Shown here in pieces: positions 1 through 34,894 of a stretch of DNA of 40,863 nt. A model generated the notes under the pieces. That model saw only the letters and a list, made by a program, of their open reading frames with translations, did no database searches and had not been told where the DNA came from. Position numbers and translations under genes: made by a program. This stretch comes from a virus: the IMG/VR virus record IMGVR_UViG_3300045988_129344; one strand, 5' to 3'. Numbering within the stretch: the stretch's first letter is position 1; each line of letters begins with the position of its first letter.

Positions 1-28
1 TGGTACGCCCGGAGGGATTCGAACCCCT
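1..28 (-). other. tRNA 3'-end-like segment (T-arm, acceptor 3' strand, discriminator A, CCA). Partial only, not a full tRNA gene
   Basis: The reverse complement reads AGGGG-TTCGAAT-CCCTC-CGGGCGT-A-CCA. The next 27 nt are AT-rich and contain the palindrome TTAAATATTTAA; I could not fold them into an anticodon arm. The same segment occurs at 40809-40836. Confidence 0.6.
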
Positions 29-55
29 TAAATATTTAATGAATATGCGGTTTCT
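1..55. repeat. Terminal direct repeat copy 1 (att core region)
   Basis: tggtacgcccggagggattcgaaccccttaaatatttaatgaatatgcggtttct is identical to 40809-40863. Confidence 0.95.
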
Positions 56-64
56 GGACATATC

Positions 65-82
65 TGACTAATGCTTGACTAA
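65..82 (+). promoter_or_regulatory. Two TGACTAA arm-type repeats (putative integrase P' arm sites)
   Basis: TGACTAA at 65-71 and 76-82, in the same orientation as the four copies at 40651-40687. Confidence 0.5.
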
Positions 83-1104
83 TTCATAAATGTATTTAAT
101 TTTTCTACGGTTTCTTTAAAGTGATTTGTACGAATATGTGTATAAATATTTCTTGTAACCGAAATGTCGCTATGCCCTAATAAATGTTGAGCATCTTTTA
201 CGTCTATCCCTGCTTCAAAAAGTATTGTTGCGTAAGTATGACGCAACTGATGAGCTGTTATATCAAGTCCTGTTTCTTTTTTATATTTATCCCAACGACG
301 TTGAAAAGCTGAATAACCGAGTGGCTTTGTACCGTCAATCGAAAATATAAAATTTTCATCTTTTCCTTTAGGGAGTTTATCTGCTAATACATCAAGCAAA
401 ACCACTTTGCGAGTGCCGTTTTCTGTTTTAGTACCTTTAATATGAGGGACGTTGCTTTTATGATATACAGATTTATAAACATTAATTTCTTTATTATCGA
501 AATCAATATCTTTAAACTGTAAAGCAAGAGCTTCGCCCTTTCTTAATCCGGTGTATAACAAAAAATATGGGAACAAACCAAAAGAACAATTTAGACTATT
601 TTTCACTGCTTCGGTTTCTTCTTCTGTAAGAGGTTGTCGTTTGATAGCTGACTTGCCTTTTGGAGGACTAATATATCTTGTAGGGTCATTTTCAACATAG
701 CCTTTTATATAGGCGTATTTAAAAACTAATCGGACTATGGATAATTGGTCTTTTATGGTTTTTGTTGCGTAATCTCTTGTTACATAATAGTCTAAATATT
801 GCTCAATATCGATAGGCTGTATTTCTTTGATATATCTATCATCAAATTCTTCTATTGCGTGACTAAGTAAAATTTTATATCTTTTTGCGGTATTATACTC
901 TATCTTAGGAAAATGTTCTTCTTCCCATTCTTCTGCAACTTCACTAAACAGTTTACCTCTTTCTTCTTGTTGGGTGTAAGCAAGAATTTGACGATTAATA
1001 TCACGTTCAGCTTGTTGCTCCGTAGTTTTGCTACTGTAAAAATATAATCTCTTACCGTTGATTGTGACGACTTTTAAGTATCTTCCGTCTTTTCTCTTTT
1101 TCAT
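79..1104 (-). CDS. int: Tyrosine site-specific integrase
   Basis: 341 aa. The C-terminal catalytic region AHQLRHTYATILFEAGIDVKDAQHLLGHSDISVTRNIYTH fits the R..HxxR..H..Y tyrosine recombinase signature. The gene is adjacent to the att core. Confidence 0.93.
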   Translation of the reverse strand: MKKRKDGRYLKVVTINGKRLYFYSSKTTEQQAERDINRQILAYTQQEERGKLFSEVAEEWEEEHFPKIEYNTAKRYKILLSHAIEEFDDRYIKEIQPIDIEQYLDYYVTRDYATKTIKDQLSIVRLVFKYAYIKGYVENDPTRYISPPKGKSAIKRQPLTEEETEAVKNSLNCSFGLFPYFLLYTGLRKGEALALQFKDIDFDNKEINVYKSVYHKSNVPHIKGTKTENGTRKVVLLDVLADKLPKGKDENFIFSIDGTKPLGYSAFQRRWDKYKKETGLDITAHQLRHTYATILFEAGIDVKDAQHLLGHSDISVTRNIYTHIRTNHFKETVEKLNTFMN

Positions 1105-1195
1105 TTTAATACACTCCTTTTAAAATTAGGTATTGCAAAAACAGAGTGTATATGATACAATAATTTTGCGAATATGTGTTTCAATACACTCTTAT

Positions 1196-1231
1196 CCTCC
1201 GACTGTTGGTAGCGGTCGGGGGAATTTTTTT
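1196..1231 (+). terminator. Rho-independent terminator oriented for plus-strand transcripts
   Basis: Stem cctccgac (1196-1203) pairs with gtcggggg (1215-1222), followed by a T-run at 1225-1231. There is no T-run on the minus-strand side. Confidence 0.5.
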
Positions 1232-1259
1232 ATAATAAGAATTAAATATTAAGGAATAA

Positions 1260-1487
1260 TTAGTGTATTCCAAGTTCTTTCATTGCTTCATCGGATGAAA
1301 CGAATGTTTTACATTCGGGATTAGTTTCGATTTCGTTTAACATATCAAGGTCGGTTTTATCCGGTTCAATTTCCTCAATATCAGACCAAGAGGAAAAATT
1401 ATCAATAATAATCTTCCATAATGAATTGGCATCTTTTTCACTCATAACGGTTACAGCACCTAAAATACGTTCTTTAATGTTTGACAT
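1260..1487 (-). CDS. Small acidic protein, candidate antitoxin partner of the upstream RelE-like toxin
   Basis: ATG at 1487 is preceded by AAGGAG; the ORF-track start at 1496 is a GTG. It lies 15 nt downstream of the toxin stop in the same operon. I recognised no family. Confidence 0.45.
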   Translation of the reverse strand: MSNIKERILGAVTVMSEKDANSLWKIIIDNFSSWSDIEEIEPDKTDLDMLNEIETNPECKTFVSSDEAMKELGIH

Positions 1488-1502
1488 AATAATCACGCTC
1501 CT

Positions 1503-1745
1503 TTATTTATAAACATCTCCACGATTACCTATTTTTTCGATATATAATATATTACCCTGTCTATCAAATATAACTCTAAAATCACCGACACGAAGTCTAT
1601 ATTTTGAATCTGTACCTTGAAATTTTTTTACATCTCCGTTAGGAAGAGAGTTTATAGCCGTAACAATTCTTTCTTTTGTCGAACGGCTTTGTTTTTGCAA
1701 AAACTTAATTGCTTGCTTAGAATAATTTATCTCCACATTCATCAC
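1503..1745 (-). CDS. RelE/ParE-family type II toxin-like protein
   Basis: 80 aa. KYRLRVGDFRVIFDRQGNILYIEKIGNRGDVYK matches the characteristic YRLRVGDYRIIY...I..I.HR..VY C-terminal pattern of RelE/ParE toxins. AAGGAAG RBS. Confidence 0.75.
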   Translation of the reverse strand: MMNVEINYSKQAIKFLQKQSRSTKERIVTAINSLPNGDVKKFQGTDSKYRLRVGDFRVIFDRQGNILYIEKIGNRGDVYK

Positions 1746-1759
1746 TTCCTTAAATCAAC

Positions 1760-2428
1760 TTACATTTCTCTAATCAGCAATTTTGGAACACCCATTACTC
1801 GGCAATGCTCTAAATCTTCGCCCTCAATCAAAATAGGTGGAACATTTGGATTTATAGGAACTAATCGTAGCCAATCTTCACCTTTAACAAATTCGACTTT
1901 TTTTAATGTTGATATTTCGTCATCATATATCACTGCTCCAACGTCACCACTATAATTAACAGTGCTTTGACGTAAGATTAATACTTTATCGCCGTCTTGA
2001 TATTGTGGATACATACTGTCGCCTTTAACGCAAAGTACAAAGAAATCTTGCGGGCTATATCCTTTTAAATATGAATTAGGAACATCAACTTTATCTCCAT
2101 CCCACGATTCAATGGCAATGTGATTATATCCTGCCGCTATGTCACCTATAACGGGGAATGTTGTATAGTCCTCTGTTATATTCGGACTTGGAAATTTATC
2201 ATCTATATATGTTTCAGTTTCCGATTCATCCCAACCCATTAAGTATTGAGCAGAAACATTTGTTGCTTTAGCAATAGCCTCTATACTATCAATAGGAATT
2301 TTTTTTGTTTCACCTGTTGCATATCGTTGTAATGCAGATTTTGAAATACCGGTTAATTTAGCAAGCTCGCCATAAGAGAGGTCTGCTTGTTTAAGAGCTT
2401 GTAAAATTCTATCTGAACACTCACTCAT
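1760..2428 (-). CDS. CI/LexA-like phage repressor (XRE HTH plus S24 autopeptidase domain)
   Basis: N-terminal HTH LSYGELAKLTGISKSALQRYATGE. C-terminal VKGDSMYP (Ser nucleophile) and TLKKVE (Lys) match the S24 peptidase. The likely start is the ATG at 2428 after GAGGTG; the track start at 2437 is a GTG. Confidence 0.9.
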   Translation of the reverse strand: MSECSDRILQALKQADLSYGELAKLTGISKSALQRYATGETKKIPIDSIEAIAKATNVSAQYLMGWDESETETYIDDKFPSPNITEDYTTFPVIGDIAAGYNHIAIESWDGDKVDVPNSYLKGYSPQDFFVLCVKGDSMYPQYQDGDKVLILRQSTVNYSGDVGAVIYDDEISTLKKVEFVKGEDWLRLVPINPNVPPILIEGEDLEHCRVMGVPKLLIREM

Positions 2429-2459
2429 TATTATCACCTCGACATTATAATAACATATC

Positions 2460-2568
2460 TGTCCCTAAAATGCAATACATAAAAACAAAATATTTTAATT
2501 TTGTCCCTAAAAAGGGTTGACAACGATAAACAAGTGTGTTATTATATACTTGTCCCTAAAGAGGGACA
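2460..2568. promoter_or_regulatory. Divergent immunity region with three TGTCCCT operator motifs
   Basis: TGTCCCTAAA at 2460-2469. TGTCCCTaaaaAGGG at 2502-2516. Perfect palindrome TGTCCCTaaagAGGGACA at 2551-2568. Confidence 0.7.
2517..2545 (+). promoter_or_regulatory. Rightward early promoter (PR-like)
   Basis: TTGACA (2517-2522), 17-nt spacer, TATTAT (2540-2545), flanked by operator motifs. Confidence 0.7.
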
Positions 2569-2583
2569 GAAAGGAGAATAGTA

Positions 2584-2826
2584 ATGGTTGATAAAAATCG
2601 ACTAATGGGTCATATCATAAGTAAAGGTTATTCTCAACGCACACTATCTGAAAAAATAGGAGTATCAAAGAATACCTTAAATAGCAAGATTAATGGGCAT
2701 TCATCATTTGATGTTGACCTTATCGAAAAAATATGTGATACATTGAGTATTACGGACATAAATGAAAAAGCAAAAATTTTTTTGAAACAAGCGTCCCTGA
2801 ATAGGGATGAAAATCAGCGTAAATGA
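2584..2826 (+). CDS. Cro-like XRE-family HTH regulator
   Basis: 80 aa. YSQRTLSEKIGVSKNTLNSKINGHS is an HTH. RBS AAAGGAG. Divergent from the repressor. Confidence 0.85.
   Translation: MVDKNRLMGHIISKGYSQRTLSEKIGVSKNTLNSKINGHSSFDVDLIEKICDTLSITDINEKAKIFLKQASLNRDENQRK
2793..2808. promoter_or_regulatory. Fourth operator-like palindrome inside the 3' end of the cro-like gene
   Basis: GTCCCTgaatAGGGAt has the same half-sites and 4-nt spacer as the 2551-2568 palindrome. Confidence 0.4.
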
Positions 2827-2842
2827 AAGGAAGCGAAAAGCA

Positions 2843-3040
2843 ATGGGTGAAGAAAAAGTTACTATAAAAATAGGAGTAGACACAACAGAGTTAAATCAAA
2901 AACTTGATGAAAGCATAAAAAAAGCAACGGAGTTAATGGAATTGCTACAACAATTAGGAATAACTCCGTTACTAAAAATTAATACACCATATAATAATGC
3001 AAATAGGGTAAGAGGAGCGAAAATTACTCGCCGCAATTAG
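2843..3040 (+). CDS. Hypothetical early protein (65 aa)
   Basis: ATG at 2843 follows the conserved GAAAGGAAG RBS. Its 3' end overlaps the convergent minus-strand gene by 17 nt. Confidence 0.5.
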   Translation: MGEEKVTIKIGVDTTELNQKLDESIKKATELMELLQQLGITPLLKINTPYNNANRVRGAKITRRN

Positions 3041-3203
3041 AAAGTTTTTCACTAATATCTTGTAACCATTTTGTATTACCGTTTATGCGAGAAATGGCGC
3101 ATTCAGCTAATTCATCATCGTACCAAGCACATCGTGAAGAACAGGGTGCTTTATCGGTAGCAGTTGACATTAGTGGACAGATTTCGTAATTTGTAAAACT
3201 CAT
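3024..3203 (-). CDS. Small Cys-rich protein (59 aa), leftward cassette gene 1
   Basis: ATG at 3203 with GAGGTG RBS (3210-3215). Sequence MSFTNYEICPLMSTATDKAPCSSRCAWYDDELAECAI. It has its own promoter at 3229-3257. Confidence 0.55.
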   Translation of the reverse strand: MSFTNYEICPLMSTATDKAPCSSRCAWYDDELAECAISRINGNTKWLQDISEKLSNCGE

Positions 3204-3277
3204 TATAATCACCTCGCTTTCTACGGTGATTATAACACAAATAACTGGGAAATACAACCAGCGTAAATGAAAGGAAG
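3201..3277. repeat. Roughly 77-bp intergenic cassette, copy A (RBS and promoter for the minus gene plus RBS for the plus gene)
   Basis: By-eye alignment to 3719-3800 shows most positions identical. It ends with the 19-mer CAGCGTAAATGAAAGGAAG, which also occurs at 2815-2833. Confidence 0.8.
3229..3257 (-). promoter_or_regulatory. Leftward promoter, copy A
   Basis: The minus strand reads TTGTAT (3257-3252), 17-nt spacer, TGt-TATAAT (3237-3229). Confidence 0.65.
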
Positions 3278-3284
3278 TGGTGAT

Positions 3285-3455
3285 ATGGAGGATATAAAAA
3301 TATCAGTGGATTATAACACACACGGTTATACGAAAGTTGTTTCAAACAATAAGGCTGATATATTAAAAGTATTGTCGGAGGAAATAGACGATAATGTAAA
3401 GCAAATTTACATAAAAAAAGAACCGGCACAAAAAGTGTCGGTAGAAAATTGTTAA
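3285..3455 (+). CDS. Hypothetical early protein (56 aa)
   Basis: ATG at 3285 after AAAGGAAG. It overlaps the convergent minus-strand gene by 4 nt. Confidence 0.5.
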   Translation: MEDIKISVDYNTHGYTKVVSNNKADILKVLSEEIDDNVKQIYIKKEPAQKVSVENC

Positions 3456-3721
3456 AGATTTTCTTTTAACCAGTTTGACTTACATAATACATTAGACCAA
3501 GCAGCACCACCGGTAAGTGCTGCAACAAACAAGCGGTCATTACTATCAATAACTGATTTTAGATTATCACGAATATCAGAACAAGAATCAGTTGTCGATA
3601 TAATCCATGTAGATTCACATATATGTGCCCACGTTCCATACGACTTTATCTTCTCATAAAGGTCGTCGTAGTTTCTACCGGGTGAGCATAAATCATATGT
3701 AATAATTTTAGAGTTTGCCAC
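3452..3721 (-). CDS. 89-aa protein of unknown function, leftward cassette gene 2
   Basis: GTG start at 3721 with AGGAGG RBS (3730-3735). It has its own promoter at 3745-3773. KIITYDL...YGTWAHICESTWII suggests a beta-alpha-beta (ferredoxin-like) N-terminal half. Confidence 0.65.
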   Translation of the reverse strand: MANSKIITYDLCSPGRNYDDLYEKIKSYGTWAHICESTWIISTTDSCSDIRDNLKSVIDSNDRLFVAALTGGAAWSNVLCKSNWLKENL

Positions 3722-3800
3722 TATAATTACCTCCTTTCGAGATGATTATAGCATAAATAACTGGAAAATACAATCGGCGTAGGTAATATAAGAAAGGAAG
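3719..3800. repeat. Intergenic cassette, copy B
   Basis: Paralogous to 3201-3277, sharing TATAAT.ACCTC..TTTC...TGATTATA.CA.AAATAACTGG.AAATACAA.C.GCGTA...GAAAGGAAG. Confidence 0.8.
3745..3773 (-). promoter_or_regulatory. Leftward promoter, copy B
   Basis: The minus strand reads TTGTAT (3773-3768), 17-nt spacer, TGc-TATAAT (3753-3745). Confidence 0.65.
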
Positions 3801-3808
3801 ATTTGAAA

Positions 3809-3997
3809 ATGGCATTAGAGAAACCTGCGTATCGTGACAATCTCGAACGCATAAAAGCGCATTATCCCGATAAAGAAATGTTAAAAGTTAAAGATGTTCA
3901 AAGGTTCTGCGGATTAAACAGAGCAACAGTAGAAAAACTTTTTGATTTTAAAGATGGATACATCTCGGTTGCAAAATTGGCACGAGAGATGTCATAA
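3809..3997 (+). CDS. Small HTH DNA-binding protein (excisionase/AlpA-like candidate)
   Basis: LKVKDVQRFCGLNRATVEKLF is HTH-like. ATG at 3809; the track start at 3803 is a TTG. Confidence 0.5.
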   Translation: MALEKPAYRDNLERIKAHYPDKEMLKVKDVQRFCGLNRATVEKLFDFKDGYISVAKLAREMS

Positions 3998-4006
3998 CAA
4001 TTAAAT

Positions 4007-4107
4007 CTCACAGGCAGACAAGGGCTGTCCGCGTGTTATCCGTAAAATAGTCAGACTTTCCCTAAGAGTTTTAATCCTTTTGCGGACGGCTCCTGTGTGC
4101 CTGTGAG
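4007..4107 (+). other. Long imperfect hairpin (26-nt arms, 49-nt loop). Candidate structured RNA or DNA element
   Basis: ctcacaggcagacaagggctgtccgc (4007-4032) pairs with gcggacggctcctgtgtgcctgtgag (4082-4107). There are 10 perfect terminal bp, then mostly paired positions. No U-tract follows. Confidence 0.5.
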
Positions 4108-4129
4108 GAAGTAAAGAGAGATAAAACAA

Positions 4130-4243
4130 ATGAATACAATAGGAATTGCACTGATTAGTTTCGGTATCGGACTAATCATAAGTTGGAAATTGGCAGAAAG
4201 GGACAGGAAGAATGCTAAAAAGAAAACCAAAAACAGAGAATGA
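4130..4243 (+). CDS. 37-aa single-TM peptide with a Lys/Arg-rich tail
   Basis: MNTIGIALISFGIGLIISWKLAERDRKNAKKKTKNRE. Weak AGAGAG RBS. It lies immediately after the long hairpin and is below the ORF-track cutoff. Confidence 0.35.
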   Translation: MNTIGIALISFGIGLIISWKLAERDRKNAKKKTKNRE

Positions 4244-4353
4244 GAAAACGGAAGAATATTTCCACAGAGAAGTATTTCCGATGATTAACGCATTCGCCAA
4301 GGAGTGCAGAGGACACGCAAAACAAAAAATAACGGTGAAAGGAATATTTTCAA

Positions 4354-4527
4354 ATGAACAAATATGTAGTAATGACGGGCAGAGATGATGTAGTGGTTTT
4401 AAACGCCGATGACAGCAAGTCGGTTAAGGCATACATAGCAAAAGGATACGGGATAACAAATCGTATCAAGTCAAAGCACCCGCTTGAAATGAGTGTCGCA
4501 AAGATTATCGGAGGAGAGAAACAATGA
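4354..4527 (+). CDS. Hypothetical protein (57 aa)
   Basis: ATG at 4354 after AAAGGA. ATGA stop/start overlap with the next gene. Confidence 0.5.
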   Translation: MNKYVVMTGRDDVVVLNADDSKSVKAYIAKGYGITNRIKSKHPLEMSVAKIIGGEKQ

Positions 4528-4820
4528 CAGCAAAGCAAATAACAGAATTGCACGATTTGTGTTTGCAGATTAATTTATTTGCAGAAAGACATAAGCAAGC
4601 ACCTATTGCTATGTATCATATGATAGGTGATGAAAATCCATTTACAACTATGATATGTATAGAAATATATCAAACGGAACCGTTCAATATAATCAAAACA
4701 TTTACATTTTCAACGGATACTATTTCGACTGAAGATGTAAAAGGAAGATATTACAGATTAGTTAAGAAGTATTTGAAAGATTTAGTCAAAAAGAATGTGG
4801 AGGTGAAAGAGAATGAATGA
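4524..4820 (+). CDS. Hypothetical protein (98 aa)
   Basis: ORF translationally coupled to the upstream gene. No recognisable motif. Confidence 0.6.
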   Translation: MTAKQITELHDLCLQINLFAERHKQAPIAMYHMIGDENPFTTMICIEIYQTEPFNIIKTFTFSTDTISTEDVKGRYYRLVKKYLKDLVKKNVEVKENE

Positions 4821-4983
4821 CGAAGTAGAGAACTACAATAATGAAGAATTTATCGCGATATTAACCGCACTTGGCAGTAACACAAAAATATTGATTAATG
4901 GTAGTGCCGATTTTGAAATACGCCATTCGTGGAATAATGGTGAGCCGTATATCAATATTGTTACAAAAGAAAAAGACCGTTAG
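4813..4983 (+). CDS. Hypothetical protein (56 aa)
   Basis: ATG at 4813 after GGAGGTG, overlapping the previous stop. Confidence 0.5.
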   Translation: MNDEVENYNNEEFIAILTALGSNTKILINGSADFEIRHSWNNGEPYINIVTKEKDR

Positions 4984-5092
4984 AGCTGGCACTCAAAACG
5001 GTCAAAGTCAAACACAGATTTAATTATCTGTATTTGTATTATAACGCAAGATAAAATAAAAATCAAGAAAAGAATTTAAAGAGGTTAAAAAT

Positions 5093-5449
5093 ATGGCTAA
5101 CAGTGAAATCAGAAGAAAAGCAAAAGAAAACGGGGTGCATTTATGGCGAATAGCTGACGCGCTCGGAATTACTGACGGTAATTTCTCAAGAAAATTAAGA
5201 AAAGAATTAGCGGAGGCGGAAAAGGAGCAGATATTCAAAATAATTGATGATTTAAAAAAACAGCCCATAAGAAAAAATAATTTAATAACTGGTGGCGGGG
5301 ATAGTTGCGGTGAAGATGTTGTCGCATGCACCTGCGACGAATGCGGTGAACCTATATGTGTAGGCGAAAAATACTACGAAATCGTAGATATAATTATCTG
5401 CGAAAACTGTATAGAAAAATTTGCGAAGATAGGAGAGTTAAACAGATGA
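5093..5449 (+). CDS. Putative DNA-binding protein with a C-terminal Cys-cluster (zinc-ribbon-like)
   Basis: The N-terminal segment HLWRIADALGITDGNFSRKLR is HTH-like. The C-terminal segment is CTCDECGEPIC...CENC. Confidence 0.55.
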   Translation: MANSEIRRKAKENGVHLWRIADALGITDGNFSRKLRKELAEAEKEQIFKIIDDLKKQPIRKNNLITGGGDSCGEDVVACTCDECGEPICVGEKYYEIVDIIICENCIEKFAKIGELNR

Positions 5450-5922
5450 ACATATATGAAATAGACAATGCAATGTTTTCTTTAATTGACGAAGAAACGG
5501 GCGAAATAAAGGACTTTGAAGCATTTGAAGAACTACAAATGCAAAAGGAAGAAAAAATCGAAAATGCGGCACTATGGCACAAGAATTTAATAGCTGAAAG
5601 CAAAGCTATCCGAGAAGAAGAAAAAGCGCTTGCGGAGCGCCGTAAGTCGTTGGAAAACAAAGCTGAAAGTTTGAAGAATTTCGTAAATAGAACATTGAAC
5701 GGTAACAAGTTCAGTACATCAAAAGTTGCTATAAGTTACAGAAAATCAACGGCGGTAGAAGTTGATGATGAATTTATTGATTATGCAATGAAGAACAACA
5801 ACGACCTGTTGACATATAAGCAACCTGAGCCAAACAAAACGGTCATCAAGGGAATGTTGCAGGGTGGTTTTGATATTCCACACGCAGAGTTGGTAGAGAG
5901 AAACAATATGAGTATAAAATAA
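5446..5922 (+). CDS. Siphovirus Gp157-family protein
   Basis: MNIYEIDNAMFSLIDEETGEI...coiled coil...SISYRKS pattern. It sits upstream of a Sak4-like ATPase and a DUF669 gene, which is the known conserved triad. ATG at 5446 overlaps the previous stop. Confidence 0.7.
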   Translation: MNIYEIDNAMFSLIDEETGEIKDFEAFEELQMQKEEKIENAALWHKNLIAESKAIREEEKALAERRKSLENKAESLKNFVNRTLNGNKFSTSKVAISYRKSTAVEVDDEFIDYAMKNNNDLLTYKQPEPNKTVIKGMLQGGFDIPHAELVERNNMSIK

Positions 5923-5934
5923 GGAGTGATATAT

Positions 5935-6564
5935 ATGGGAATACCTGTTTTAATTATGGGTGAAAGCGGTAGCGGAAAAAGCGCAAGTATGAGAAATTTT
6001 GAAGCAGATGATTTGTTAATATTCAATGTGGCAAGTAAGCCGTTGCCGTTCCGTAAGAAGTTAAATTCAATAAAAAAGGCTACATACAACGTTATTGCCA
6101 AAGAATTAAGTAAAAAGCAGTACAAGCGATACGTTATAGACGACAGTCAATATTTGTTGGCGTTCGATTCGTTTAATCGTGCAAAAGAAACAGGCTATGC
6201 GAAGTTTACCGATATGGCGGTACGTTTTCAAAAGATGATTACATTTATTATTGAGGGATTGCCTGATGATACAATCGTATATTTTTTGCACCATTGCGAG
6301 CAGACCGAAAACGGTAAAATTAAAGCGAAAACAATCGGCAAAATGTTGGACAATCAGTTGACAGTTGAGGGACTGTTTTCAATCGTTTTACTATGTCAAG
6401 CTGACGGTCAAAGTCATAGTTTCATAACGCAATCAGACGGACATACAACGTGTAAGTCGCCTATGGATATGTTTGATTTAGAGATTGATAACGATTTGAA
6501 AGCAGTTGACGAAAGAATAAGAGAATATTACGGACTGAATGAGGAGGATAAGAATAATGAATAA
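5935..6564 (+). CDS. Sak4-like AAA (AAA_24-type) recombination ATPase
   Basis: Walker A LIMGESGSGKS. Walker-B-like RYVIDDSQ. Synteny with Gp157 and DUF669. Confidence 0.7.
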   Translation: MGIPVLIMGESGSGKSASMRNFEADDLLIFNVASKPLPFRKKLNSIKKATYNVIAKELSKKQYKRYVIDDSQYLLAFDSFNRAKETGYAKFTDMAVRFQKMITFIIEGLPDDTIVYFLHHCEQTENGKIKAKTIGKMLDNQLTVEGLFSIVLLCQADGQSHSFITQSDGHTTCKSPMDMFDLEIDNDLKAVDERIREYYGLNEEDKNNE

Positions 6565-11035: not shown

Positions 11036-11669
11036 ACAAGACAGAGAAAATTTTCATATGTTGAATTTTTTGGACAAGTTTATGATGGGACATAAAGGAT
11101 ACATAGCAGGCGGCTGTTTTAAAAACATTTTCAACGGTGAAAAGATAAAGGACATAGATATATTTTTTGATGACGAGGAAGAATTTTATTGCGCCGTGGA
11201 ATACTTCGACAGTCAGACAGAAGGATATACAGGCGATAACGCATTGACAGTGCAATATAATTTTTACTACGAAAACGACAATGTCAAGGCATATAAGCAT
11301 ATAGACAGTGGGTTGGTATTGGAGTTATGTCGTAAAAATTTCAATGACGCAAAGTCGATGTTAGAAAATTTTGATTTTACTATATCAAAGTTTGCATATT
11401 TCAAAGAAGAAGTAACGGAGGACGACGGAAAACATATTGAATATAAAGTAATGTACGACGATAAGTTTTTTGAACACCTACATACAAAACGATTGGTAGT
11501 CGATGACAAAATACTGTTTCCAATGTCAACATTTGAGCGAATGATACGATATATCAAATATGGATATATGCCGTGCAGAGAAACAAAATTGAAGATAGCA
11601 ACAGCAATACACGAAACAAATATTGAGGATATTTCGGTCAGCAAAAGTTTGTATGAGGGTATGGATTAA
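11025..11669 (+). CDS. Minimal Pol-beta-superfamily nucleotidyltransferase, class-II CCA-adding/poly(A)-polymerase head-domain-like
   Basis: IAGGCFKNIFNGEKIKDIDIFF fits GG-x12-DxD. ENFDFTISKFAY resembles the RDFTINA motif. ATG at 11025 after GGAGGA. Confidence 0.55.
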   Translation: MIIKQDRENFHMLNFLDKFMMGHKGYIAGGCFKNIFNGEKIKDIDIFFDDEEEFYCAVEYFDSQTEGYTGDNALTVQYNFYYENDNVKAYKHIDSGLVLELCRKNFNDAKSMLENFDFTISKFAYFKEEVTEDDGKHIEYKVMYDDKFFEHLHTKRLVVDDKILFPMSTFERMIRYIKYGYMPCRETKLKIATAIHETNIEDISVSKSLYEGMD

Positions 11670-33035: not shown

Positions 33036-33608
33036 CTAATTAGATAGCTTGTGAGTAACCTCACTGACTTTCCAATTGATTGTAAGTTCATAATGCTTTG
33101 TTAAATTGAATTTACCTACAATTGAATCGTTAAGTATTTTATTAGATACATCAATAAAAAATGGTCTGGAAAGTTGGTTGAGTACCTTTAATGCATCTAA
33201 TGTTTCCTCATCTTTTGCTTGATGAATAGTTAACTCATATAAAGTAACTTTATCCTTGGATAGTAAGAGTCCTTTTGGTCTTAAAGAAGCCGCAAACGTA
33301 CAATAATATTCTTCTGATACACCTTTTTTTAAATGAAAAGTTAAAAAACCATATTCTTCTGCCTTTATGGTTTCCTCATAGGTAGAAAAATCTATTCCAT
33401 ATAGTTCTATAGGAGTATAATCAATTAGTTGCGTAGGAGTTACATTCAAATATCTACATAGTTTATCCAATGTATCGAACTGAATGCCTTTGCAATTATT
33501 TTGGGATAAAGCTGTAAGTGTAGTTCGTGAAATACCGGTATCATGAGCTACTTTTGTTATTTTAATGTTGTTTTCAGCAAGAATAATTGATAGATTACAT
33601 CTAATCAT
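33036..33608 (-). CDS. XRE/HTH_26 (YozG-like) regulator with a C-terminal domain of about 125 aa of unknown function (Mnt-analogue candidate)
   Basis: MIRCNLSIILAENNIKITKVAHDTGISRTTLTALSQNNCKGIQFDTLDKLCRYLNVTPTQLIDY. ATG at 33608 after GGAGG. Confidence 0.75.
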   Translation of the reverse strand: MIRCNLSIILAENNIKITKVAHDTGISRTTLTALSQNNCKGIQFDTLDKLCRYLNVTPTQLIDYTPIELYGIDFSTYEETIKAEEYGFLTFHLKKGVSEEYYCTFAASLRPKGLLLSKDKVTLYELTIHQAKDEETLDALKVLNQLSRPFFIDVSNKILNDSIVGKFNLTKHYELTINWKVSEVTHKLSN

Positions 33609-33630
33609 AATAAAACCTCCTTTCATAATA

Positions 33631-33659
33631 ATTGTACAATACACTGTTCATTTTGTCAA
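33631..33659 (-). promoter_or_regulatory. Leftward promoter of the long HTH gene
   Basis: The minus strand reads TTGACA (33659-33654), 17-nt spacer, TACAAT (33636-33631). A TGTTCA box at 33645-33650 lies in the spacer. Confidence 0.6.
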
Positions 33660-33697
33660 GTTTTTAGAAAAAAATAATAAAAATATTAAAAAAAGTA

Positions 33698-33759
33698 TTG
33701 ACATTTAATTAATAGGAATGTATAATAGAAATAGATTTTGAACAAAAGTCTGAACAAAA
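33698..33759 (+). promoter_or_regulatory. Consensus rightward promoter plus two TGAACAAAA boxes
   Basis: TTGACA (33698-33703), 17-nt spacer, TATAAT (33721-33726). TGAACAAAA at 33739-33747 and 33751-33759. Confidence 0.7.
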
Positions 33760-33780
33760 ATCAAAAAAAAACGAAAGGAT

Positions 33781-33993
33781 GTGGTAAAATTGGACAACAA
33801 CTTATCGCAAATCTTAGGCGAAAAACTTATTAAGATTTCGCAAGTTTCAAAAGATACTGGAATTTCAAGGTCTACGTTGACAAACCTGTATTATAAACGT
33901 AGTAAAGCTATTTCGGGTAATGTATTACACAAATTGTGTGATTATCTTGATTGCAGTGTTGGAGATTTGTTGGAAAAGAAAACAAAAAAATAA
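33781..33993 (+). CDS. Small XRE/HTH_26 regulator (Arc-analogue candidate)
   Basis: ISQVSKDTGISRSTLTNLYYKRSKAISGNVLHKLCDYLDCSVGDLL is paralogous to the N-terminal domain of the divergent gene. The start is uncertain (GTG 33781 or TTG 33790). Confidence 0.75.
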   Translation: MVKLDNNLSQILGEKLIKISQVSKDTGISRSTLTNLYYKRSKAISGNVLHKLCDYLDCSVGDLLEKKTKK

Positions 33994-34111
33994 CGATAAC
34001 ACGCCAACCAAAGCAATCGTTATCGTTATCAGTACAAGACGTTTCCGTCTATAAGATATTATATCATAGATTGAAACTCTTGTCAAAGCAAAATTTGAGA
34101 GGAGAAGTTTA

Positions 34112-34894
34112 ATGAATAATTTACAGATTGTAAAATCAGCACAATTCGGAGAGGTACAATGTGATGTGTACTCAGATAGTCAAGATATGTTTATGACAAT
34201 AAGTCAGTTATCTGATTGCTTAGGATATGCCGACAGAAAGAGTATCGAAAAGATAATCGAACGTAATCCTTACTTAAAAGATAAAGAGTTTTCAGTTACC
34301 GACAAATTGTCGGCTACTGATGGTAAGAAGTATAATACTCGTATTTTCACAGAAGACGGCATATATGAAGTTACCTTTCTCGCAAAAACTGAAAAAGCAA
34401 AAGAGTTCAGAGCGTGGGTAAGAAAACTACTGAAATCTTTAAGAAAAGGCGAAACGGTTAATATTGCAGCAGACCACTTAAAAGAAATTGAATTACAAGC
34501 AAAACGTGACAGAGCCACCGCAATGTTGCTTAATGCTCAAAATCGTATGATAAAAACGCTTTTATCGAACACTAAGGACAAAAACTTATCACAGATTGCG
34601 ATTGATGTTATGGGCATTAAAGCGGTGGAGCAGATAACGGGTAAGAATATGAACCAGTATTTACCCGAATGTGAAAAACTTTATTCAGCAACCGAAGTCG
34701 GTGGAATGTTCGGTGTATCGGCTATGAAAATTGGCAAGACTGCCAATGCAAGCGGACTTAAAAATGATACATACGGTAAAACTGTTATGAGCAAGTCAAA
34801 ACATAGTTCTAAAGAGGTACAACAGTTTTTATACAACGAAAAAGGCGTACAAGCTTTAGGCAAGATTTTAGGCAAGACCGTTAAAACGGCGTAG
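34112..34894 (+). CDS. Bro-N domain antirepressor
   Basis: TISQLSDCLGY...YNTRIFTEDGIYEVTFLAKTEKAKEFRAWVRKLL fits the Bro-N pattern. There is also a C-terminal ANT/KilAC-like region. Confidence 0.75.
   Translation: MNNLQIVKSAQFGEVQCDVYSDSQDMFMTISQLSDCLGYADRKSIEKIIERNPYLKDKEFSVTDKLSATDGKKYNTRIFTEDGIYEVTFLAKTEKAKEFRAWVRKLLKSLRKGETVNIAADHLKEIELQAKRDRATAMLLNAQNRMIKTLLSNTKDKNLSQIAIDVMGIKAVEQITGKNMNQYLPECEKLYSATEVGGMFGVSAMKIGKTANASGLKNDTYGKTVMSKSKHSSKEVQQFLYNEKGVQALGKILGKTVKTA

Follow-up and report, generated by a model that had tools for sequence, protein, structure and literature searches.

Two backward accessory genes downstream of cro in a temperate Hominilimicola prophage: a probable array of exchangeable units

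Why should two leftward genes lie inside the rightward early operon of a temperate phage, each facing a small gene of that operon and each preceded by nearly the same DNA? The question is raised by IMG/VR virus record IMGVR_UViG_3300045988_129344, a stretch of 40,863 nucleotides (the window), which is a complete temperate prophage of siphovirus type and in which p59 and p89 are the only leftward genes from cro (2584) to beyond 8000, the same layout being given by public gene calls. The answer favoured here, with a probability of about 0.6, is that both genes belong to a two-unit array of backward accessory genes ("antisense morons"), located at a recombination hot spot after cro in a temperate prophage of Hominilimicola. 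Each unit would be composed of a small rightward open reading frame (ORF) of the PR/cro early operon and a leftward cargo gene, and the cargo would have its own portable sigma-A promoter of the extended -10 type together with a strong ribosome-binding site (RBS). The features involved are given below in the order of the window, with amino acids abbreviated as aa, helix-turn-helix as HTH and the Shine-Dalgarno sequence as SD.

2517..2545, plus strand: PR-like early promoter, TTGACA-17-TATTAT with TG, 11/12 matches, CI operator motifs on its flanks
2584..2826, plus strand: cro-like HTH repressor (Pfam HTH_3, E 4e-8), last codons QRK* inside junction 1
2810..2836, plus strand: junction 1, recombination boundary, in which the 19-mer 2815-2833 comprises the cro stop codon and the SD AAAGGAAG of p65
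2843..3040, plus strand: p65, 65 aa, small rightward ORF of cassette 1, with an SD at proper spacing and present in public gene calls
3024..3203, minus strand: p59, 59 aa, leftward cargo of cassette 1, 17-nt 3' overlap with p65
3201..3257, minus strand: block A, with -35 TTGTAT 3257-3252, 17-nt spacer, TG 3237-3236, -10 TATAAT 3234-3229, predicted start about 3222, SD GAGGTGA 3215-3209 and ATG 3203-3201
3204-3213 and 3226-3235: inverted repeat arms of block A, TATAATCACC ... GGTGATTATA
3259..3277, plus strand: junction 2, second exact copy of the 19-mer, giving the SD of p56
3285..3455, plus strand: p56, 56 aa, small rightward ORF of cassette 2, convergent partner of p89
3452..3721, minus strand: p89, 89 aa, leftward cargo of cassette 2, 4-nt 3' overlap with p56
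3719..3773, minus strand: block B, with -35 TTGTAT 3773-3768, TG 3753-3752, -10 3750-3745, predicted start about 3738, SD GGAGGTAA 3735-3728 and GTG 3721-3719
3721-3733 and 3739-3751: inverted repeat arms of block B
3774..3800, plus strand: junction 3, degenerate copy of the 19-mer with insertions, giving the SD for the next rightward gene

The boundaries of the two units were marked by the 19-mer CAGCGTAAATGAAAGGAAG, which has exact copies at 2815-2833 and 3259-3277 (0.02 expected); allowing up to three mismatches gave no further site in the window. An earlier note, made from the letters of this DNA, had reported these two copies and a degenerate third one ending at 3800; exactly two were found, and the third proved to be a copy split by insertions (CGGCGTA-GGT-AAT-ATAA-GAAAGGAAG). 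The four ORFs, their 3' overlaps (17 nt and 4 nt) and the common architecture of both units were also as it had described, and its statement that the four proteins are unrelated was nearly right, with the reservation that an N-terminal IKIxVD motif, for which an 18-nt DNA repeat codes, is common to p65 and p56. In 25 loci a junction of the form (A/C)GAACAAAAATCAGCGTAAATGAAAGGRRG was present at cassette boundaries, ahead of many different rightward genes. Its sequence reproduced the closing codons (…EQKSA*) of several distinct cro alleles and then the SD that serves the next gene, and the different cro alleles of related phages ended in the same junction DNA.

The exchange of units could be followed among related phages. 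Scanning viral contigs with the core of the block gave ten loci. One of them (L007) was the same phage (more than 99% identical) except for 1043 extra bp between cro and p65, flanked by two junction copies, and the single junction of the window was equal to the left half of the first copy (J1) joined to the right half of the second (J2). This larger form (L007/L246 type, +1043 bp) was the commonest in assemblies, the 1043-bp unit being absent from the window and from L253. The same two cassettes lay behind different CI and cro genes in L008 and L253, cassette 1 was kept beside a different second cassette in L221, and one to three units of the same design with unrelated cargo (72, 115, about 133, 204, 221 and 76 aa) were revealed in L001-L006 and L010. 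The number of units varied from one to four among otherwise alike related phages. Cassettes were present or absent among close relatives with precise boundaries, as is expected of a moron, both for the 1043-bp unit and for the second cassette of L221. The proposal of a cassette-swapping hot spot bounded by conserved junctions was well supported, since relatives carry different cargo between the same junctions, and the region downstream of cro is, on these alignments, a recombination hot spot. Units would be gained, lost and exchanged by recombination at the junction of about 20-30 bp (cro 3' end plus SD of the next gene) that stands at every boundary. Homologous recombination on so short a junction may be the simplest mechanism, and no dedicated recombinase was evident for cassette exchange.

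The extra unit of L007 (11469-12512 in its own coordinates, also in L246-L252) encoded a rightward 56-aa zinc-ribbon ORF, a leftward membrane protein of 84-87 aa and a leftward 120-aa ORF, and contained about 200 bp of conserved non-coding DNA common to L005. In L007 a weak Rfam match to a group I intron (24 bits, E 0.0016, below the gathering score) was observed at 11273-11624, running into p65.

The second shared part of the units was the block in front of each leftward gene. The minus strand of each block shows, in order, TTGTAT, 17 nt of spacer, TGnTATAAT, a gap of about 13-20 nt, a strong SD, a further 5-6 nt and the start codon. When 3201-3277 was aligned with 3719-3800, 66 positions were identical (77/82 nt, three indels, about 80-86% identity), and the cores (3227-3265 and 3743-3781) were 87% identical; the blocks of about 77 bp had been called near-identical, which was correct as to their strong similarity and somewhat generous as a term. 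Block variants with other spacer sequence still kept TTGnnn, the 17-nt spacing, TG and TATAAT, and on this ground a promoter function is argued. With a hidden Markov model of the block, full-length or core (SD / inverted repeat / -10) copies were found directly upstream of unrelated leftward ORFs; among the matches listed, 185 of 201 preceded an ORF of at least 30 aa, and they fell into at least 78 sequence clusters from Firmicutes prophages. The spacing between the promoter/SD block and the start codon was constant for many unrelated leftward genes. At the level of sequence, the reading as leftward promoters (TTGTAT-N17-TGnTATAAT with SD and start codon) was supported, with the same block before unrelated genes, and any strength of these promoters would come from the extended -10.

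It had also been considered that the block might be a generic motif of unrelated genomes. It is indeed not specific to this phage, its RBS / inverted repeat / -10 core being present in Firmicutes prophages before at least 78 gene families, but it stands before genes as a portable expression module, and it appears to be such a module and not merely a local duplication. That the repeats now have no function, and are scars left by a tandem duplication at the site or by general mosaicism of phages, is very improbable: two units do lie side by side with shared junctions, but -35, TG, -10, SD and start codon were kept where the intervening sequence had diverged, and a plain duplication scar is excluded because the cargo is unrelated and because dozens of other phages have the block and the junction beside different cargo.

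In each block an inverted repeat of 10-13 bp pairs the -10 region with the SD/start region and folds on either strand, with z-scores from -4 to -7.5. It was also present in promoters found independently by protein homology (L254, L256/L265 with the arms shifted, and L083), and absent from most other p89 loci and from p59-family loci; its presence in some homologue loci and absence from most make it a feature of one promoter lineage, not of the gene families. As a conjecture, the repeat would mask the SD in read-through RNA, and RNA from the own promoter would be without the left arm. A reading of the hairpin as a rightward terminator was rejected, as no T-run comes after it. Around these elements two further observations were made. 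A 12-nt repeat of the -10 region, GATTATAACACA, lies at 3309-3320 inside p56 (also at 3228-3239), with a third minus-strand TGTTATAAT at 3310-3318. In L250 (NCBI GCA_041405525.1) an element with an IS110-family transposase is inserted in block A, at the equivalent of window 3206-3212, where it splits the p59 RBS from its promoter and falls in the left arm of the inverted repeat.

Both leftward genes were under coding constraint. p89 belongs to phrog_1090 (PHROG, E 7e-30), a phage-borne family present in many Firmicutes phages, with 73 homologues and a range from Staphylococcus to Klebsiella phages; the residues Y9, D10, L11, Y18, L21, S37, W39 and D59 are invariant, and against homologues the rate of nonsynonymous change (pN) was 0.16-0.33 and that of synonymous change (pS) 0.6-0.8. 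The family of p59 is small, and was found by an exhaustive HMMER search, while a word-indexed search gave only near-identical relatives of p59 and p65. Its homologues are 39-57% identical over the alignment, with invariant C9, P10, C21, C25 and C35 and an SRIN motif, and pN was 0.32-0.39 with pS saturated; p59 is probably a small metal-binding protein. The two minus-strand ORFs, whose conservation as coding sequence the earlier note had made a condition of its reading, are conserved in this way and under purifying selection. For the rightward partners, p56 evolved faster than p89 (pN/pS 0.5-0.7) and was conserved beside p89 homologues in L254, L262 and L263, which makes four backgrounds with the window. 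p65 had only close homologues, plus a partial homologue partnering a p59 relative (L295), and pN was about equal to pS against one distant candidate; its coding status is the least certain of the four ORFs. Nothing was found for p59, p65 and p56 in Pfam, NCBIfam or PHROG.

How the units would be expressed depends on the early switch. TGTCCCT occurs only in the cI-cro intergenic region (2460, 2502, 2551, 2562) and at three distant sites, and lies outside both promoter blocks, in agreement with the claim that the leftward promoters carry no CI operator motif. The PR-like promoter would drive cro and a rightward operon running through the cassettes: a long run of rightward genes is present downstream of cro, and the terminator scan gave no plus-strand terminator-like site between this promoter and 5200, so that rightward read-through across the array is expected from the absence of such sites in 2826-5200. 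In the lysogen, CI shuts off PR, and p59 and p89 would be made, because the leftward promoters have no CI operator. After induction, transcription from PR would pass head-on through both units, lowering cargo expression by polymerase collision and antisense pairing, and the small rightward ORFs would be expressed. From this arrangement we infer promoter activity and an expression switch between lysogeny and lysis; the cargo would most likely be of use to the lysogen, in defence or exclusion for instance.

At the 3' end of cro (2793-2809) there is a palindrome, CGTCCCT-GAATA-GGGATG, which resembles the CI operator TGTCCCT-AAAGA-GGGACA (2551-2568). The terminator scan listed this palindrome too, as a weak terminator of the minus strand. 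It may be a further CI site, or may act as a roadblock that separates the cassettes from cro.

The leftward promoters might instead be mainly regulatory, giving constitutive transcription antisense to cro and towards PR, which would make lysogeny more stable or fix the threshold of induction, as PRE or paQ do, with the ORFs being secondary. No strong terminator lies before cro, leftward transcripts could run through anti-p65 into cro, and the promoter block is better conserved than the cargo. This view is unlikely, since p59 and p89 are under purifying selection with a perfect SD at fixed spacing, the same module stands before at least 78 gene families at varied genome positions, and arrays of one to four units occur in otherwise alike phages. 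A purely regulatory role is inadequate, because it leaves the purifying selection on diverse cargo unexplained.

The convergent genes with 3' overlap, the pairing of p56 and p89 conserved in four backgrounds, and the fact that Cas2-fold proteins include VapD and GhoS could also be taken for toxin-antidote pairs, in which a leftward toxin (p89 as a VapD/Cas2-type RNase) is countered by the rightward ORF or its antisense RNA and the prophage is stabilised. Such pairs are quite improbable here. In a lysogen the toxin would be on and the antidote, in the CI-repressed PR operon, would be off, which is the wrong polarity for an addiction module; the partners are exchangeable, the cargo is not of the short hydrophobic type I peptide kind, no toxin or antitoxin family was matched in Pfam, NCBIfam or PADLOC, and the phage already has a conventional RelE/ParE pair at 1260-1745. 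A type II toxin-antitoxin system was rejected, as the genes are convergent and not a co-directional operon and no toxin or antitoxin domain was matched, and so was type I, since p59 and p89 look soluble and their convergent partners are conserved ORFs with an SD. The toxin/antidote alternative of the earlier note thus found no support: there was no Pfam, NCBIfam or PADLOC match to a toxin or antitoxin, no type II operon and no hydrophobic type I toxin.

Of the fold checks that had been proposed for the small proteins, that of p89 was informative and that of p59 was not, its AlphaFold2 model being poor (pLDDT 59) and too weak for a fold search. p89 was modelled with a pLDDT of 92 as a globular alpha/beta fold, and the top Foldseek matches in the PDB were Cas2 proteins, BPSL1038 and GhoS (TM 0.5-0.6, E 0.02-0.2). 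By its model, p89 is a stand-alone protein with a Cas2-like ferredoxin fold, and probably a small nuclease-like protein of Cas2/VapD/GhoS type. It shares the Cas2-like fold, but unlike Cas2 it has no Pfam Cas2 match and no cas1 or CRISPR array nearby. The curated Cas2 models of Pfam and NCBIfam gave no match at E <= 1, PADLOC gave a weak Cas2b match only (E 1.6e-4, 19.5 bits), no chain was found with the p89 profile among PDB sequences, and the fold search in BFVD was uninformative. Neither cas1 nor a CRISPR-like repeat array was present in the window, where the neighbours of p89 are phage early genes, and the same was found at homologue loci; a CRISPR association of p89 was rejected for lack of cas1 or a CRISPR-like array in the window.

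A p89 homologue (53% identical) in L258 (1125-2361) is followed by an overlapping same-strand 336-aa PIN_8/PIN_12 protein within an integrative element. The pair adjoins an HTH_17 gene and an integrase, and may be a two-gene nuclease module.

With this fold, the cargo could serve counter-defence or host takeover, p89 for example being a Cas2 mimic that poisons Cas1-Cas2 and blocks spacer acquisition, and the array being an anti-defence island. p89 keeps the YDL motif in beta1 of its Cas2-like fold, it is annotated as Cas2 by sources, the window is without cas1 and a CRISPR array, and Tad2-like anti-defence genes occur in the same arrays. This is rather unlikely: the Tad2-like genes belong to the rightward (lytic) strand and do not follow the leftward promoter, Foldseek gave weak matches (E 0.02, TM 0.5-0.6), and the L258 homologue shares its operon with a PIN_8 nuclease, an arrangement that resembles a module of defence or of a toxin.

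A role of the cargo in the lysogen, as favoured here, can be compared with what other loci carry. On the leftward strand of sister cassettes, DUF2188, which is the PADLOC candidate PDC-S16 (E 9e-33), and DUF4145 (Pfam E 2.5e-6; weak PD-T7-4, E 0.0025) were revealed, and on the rightward strand Tad2-like proteins (E 2.6e-10). These families were the sole hints of function, and as judged from them the sister cassettes would fit defence on the lysogeny-expressed strand and counter-defence on the lytic strand. In addition, p89 and p59 homologues in unrelated phages proved, at most loci examined, to be lone backward genes close to the repressor/cro switch, within a block that is otherwise co-directional; each has a -10 of its own and a convergent partner whose 3' end overlaps with it. 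In the isolated Staphylococcus phage phiSP44-1 (L299), both the "Cas2" gp11 and gp14 are backward in the cro-ant early operon, and this phage would be a tractable system for testing the architecture. The two backward genes (2747-2974 and 3495-3758 in L299) each come after a TGTATAAT -10 box, gp14 also after a leader hairpin. Conserved pairs were p56-p89 and a 61-aa/72-aa pair, and a p65-like partner stood beside a p59 homologue.

Several points weigh against the array of backward accessory genes as interpreted above. The -35 fits TTGACA at just 3/6, and the generic promoter scan, which missed the leftward promoters because of this 3/6 consensus, listed neither site; the activity of these promoters, which the earlier note took to be probably constitutive, and their independence of CI are predictions. 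The terminator scan gave no terminator after either leftward gene, with only a weak hairpin at 2807-2794 (minus strand). The loci of the promoter-module census were fetched with a pattern demanding both inverted-repeat arms, and this inverted-repeat-core pattern gave many probable chance matches in unrelated phyla, its counts being a measure of cargo diversity, not of frequency. Partner linkage was mixed, as p89 homologues also face Tad2-like and other ORFs and Tad2-like proteins face several cargo families; the rightward ORFs may for this reason be independent early genes and not cognate inhibitors. Finally, p59 and p89 match no validated defence family in PADLOC (p59 none at all). The suggestion of a defence or exclusion function is plausible in view of PDC-S16, DUF4145 and Tad2-like proteins in sister cassettes and of the Tha/Ith and Tai/Ati layout described below, but it found no counterpart among validated defence families; for the window's own four proteins a defence/self-immunity role is putative.

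The layout is of a known kind, with precedents in morons and in noncontiguous operons of prophages, and it differs from them in its tandem of exchangeable units, to which one junction and one portable promoter/SD module are common. The morons of lambdoid phages (Juhala, Hendrix and colleagues) are reportedly extra genes with their own promoter, placed between operon neighbours, expressed from the prophage and patchy in relatives, and classical morons usually have their own terminator and are scattered singly. The style of insertion is the same in the window, whereas its units are without a clear terminator and form an array with a common junction and promoter/RBS module. Integrons have an IntI integrase, attI/attC sites and promoterless co-oriented cassettes in a tandem array beside a fixed platform. 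The window resembles them in its tandem exchangeable small units, short repeated boundary and fixed platform (the cro end). It was rejected as an integron, since it has neither IntI nor an attC-type site, its junction being a direct repeat of 20-30 bp, and the cassettes carry predicted promoters facing away from the platform promoter.

For regulation, the window would follow the logic of the noncontiguous operon as in Tha/Ith and Tai/Ati. In a noncontiguous operon (Saenz-Lahoya 2019, as given in PMC11087260) one or more genes of opposite orientation are nested in an otherwise co-directional operon, and p59 and p89 are nested backward in this way in the rightward operon. Tha/Ith of the S. aureus phage 80alpha is an overlapping antisense gene pair in a noncontiguous operon, with two expression states according to lysogeny or lysis (PMC11087260). 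In both Tha/Ith and Tai/Ati the immune gene and its inhibitor are on opposite strands, and immunity is on in lysogeny and off after induction (PMC11087260, PMC11364771). Compared with Tha/Ith, the polarity of the window is mirrored, as in 80alpha the cI operon contains the defence gene, and the inhibitor is encoded by a small antisense gene that has a promoter of its own; Pfam gave no HEPN domain in the window proteins. Tai/Ati of coliphage phi80 comes closer to the window, for there it is the immune gene that runs backward within a lytic operon; that operon also has an adjacent small gene made only after induction (PMC11364771), and its authors predict further such pairs on noncontiguous operons (PMC11364771). 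Tai/Ati interrupts a Q-dependent late operon, whereas the window cassettes interrupt the PR/cro early operon; the proteins have no sequence similarity, and the window has at least two tandem units, repeated junctions and a shared promoter block, its pairs being candidates for defence and counter-defence.

The remaining features of the prophage near the array are as follows.

79-1104, minus strand: phage-type tyrosine integrase at the attachment end, sole integrase of the window
1260-1496, minus strand: 78-aa gene directly downstream of the RelE/ParE-type toxin
1503-1745, minus strand: RelE/ParE-type toxin (Pfam/PHROG), between integrase and cI
1760-2437, minus strand: CI-type repressor with HTH and S24 peptidase domains
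3809..3997, plus strand: p62, small protein, first rightward gene past the array (weak Pfam HTH_26, E 0.045)

p62 was kept after the array in related phages. An Rfam search of window 1-6000 gave no match, and the DNA of the region gave a single 59-nt match only against isolated phages. The first letters of the window (1-40) look like the 3' end of a tRNA gene in reverse, GGATTCGAACC, and are probably the attachment core; no complete tRNA was found by ARAGORN at this tRNA-like end. Between p62 and the next gene (4007-4107) there is a near-perfect hairpin, whose arms are 26 nt long (-48.9 kcal/mol, z -5.8); most related loci have kept it (window 4011-4184 at 69-98%), it has no match in Rfam, and no T-run follows it. 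A second switch-like module lies at 33036-34894, between the tail and the holin/amidase genes, and encodes two HTH_26 proteins, one leftward (about 190 aa) and one divergent from it (70 aa), together with a protein that resembles a Bro-N antirepressor.

As for the host, exact copies of the proteins of this prophage are assigned at NCBI to Hominilimicola sp. (Oscillospiraceae). The exact 89-aa sequence of p89 was indexed in 3714 blocks of a public assembly collection, on contigs of up to 3 Mb, and the prophage is very common in the human gut. Its accessory genes are probably active in many human guts, given the 3714 blocks with exact p89.

A broader reading can be offered only tentatively, as doubtful at present: these units may form a modular system of temperate Firmicutes phages, a promoter-carrying counterpart of the integron without an integrase, with matched defence/self-immunity or counter-defence pairs, shuffling at the junction, an insulator in the inverted repeat, and p89 and p59 as new immunity families. 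If this were true, each unit would pair a lysogen-expressed defence gene with a facing lytic-cycle gene for self-immunity or counter-defence, and the repeated cro-end/SD junction would be the means by which such pairs are captured and shuffled. The inverted repeat would be an insulator masking the RBS in read-through RNA, the cargo being translated only from its own promoter, and p89 and p59 would represent two new families of small, single-gene immunity in a human-gut prophage that is among the commonest.

The array also suggests a rule by which prophage-expressed genes and their possible lytic partners could be found in uncultured Firmicutes phages: a backward gene, a promoter/SD block and a repeated junction. 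In this way a solo Cas2-fold family, a four-cysteine mini-protein and their small partners were nominated as candidates. Should the pairs prove to be modules of defence and self-immunity, the principle of the noncontiguous operon, known from Tha/Ith and Tai/Ati, would apply also in the early operon and in cassettes that are tandem and exchangeable.

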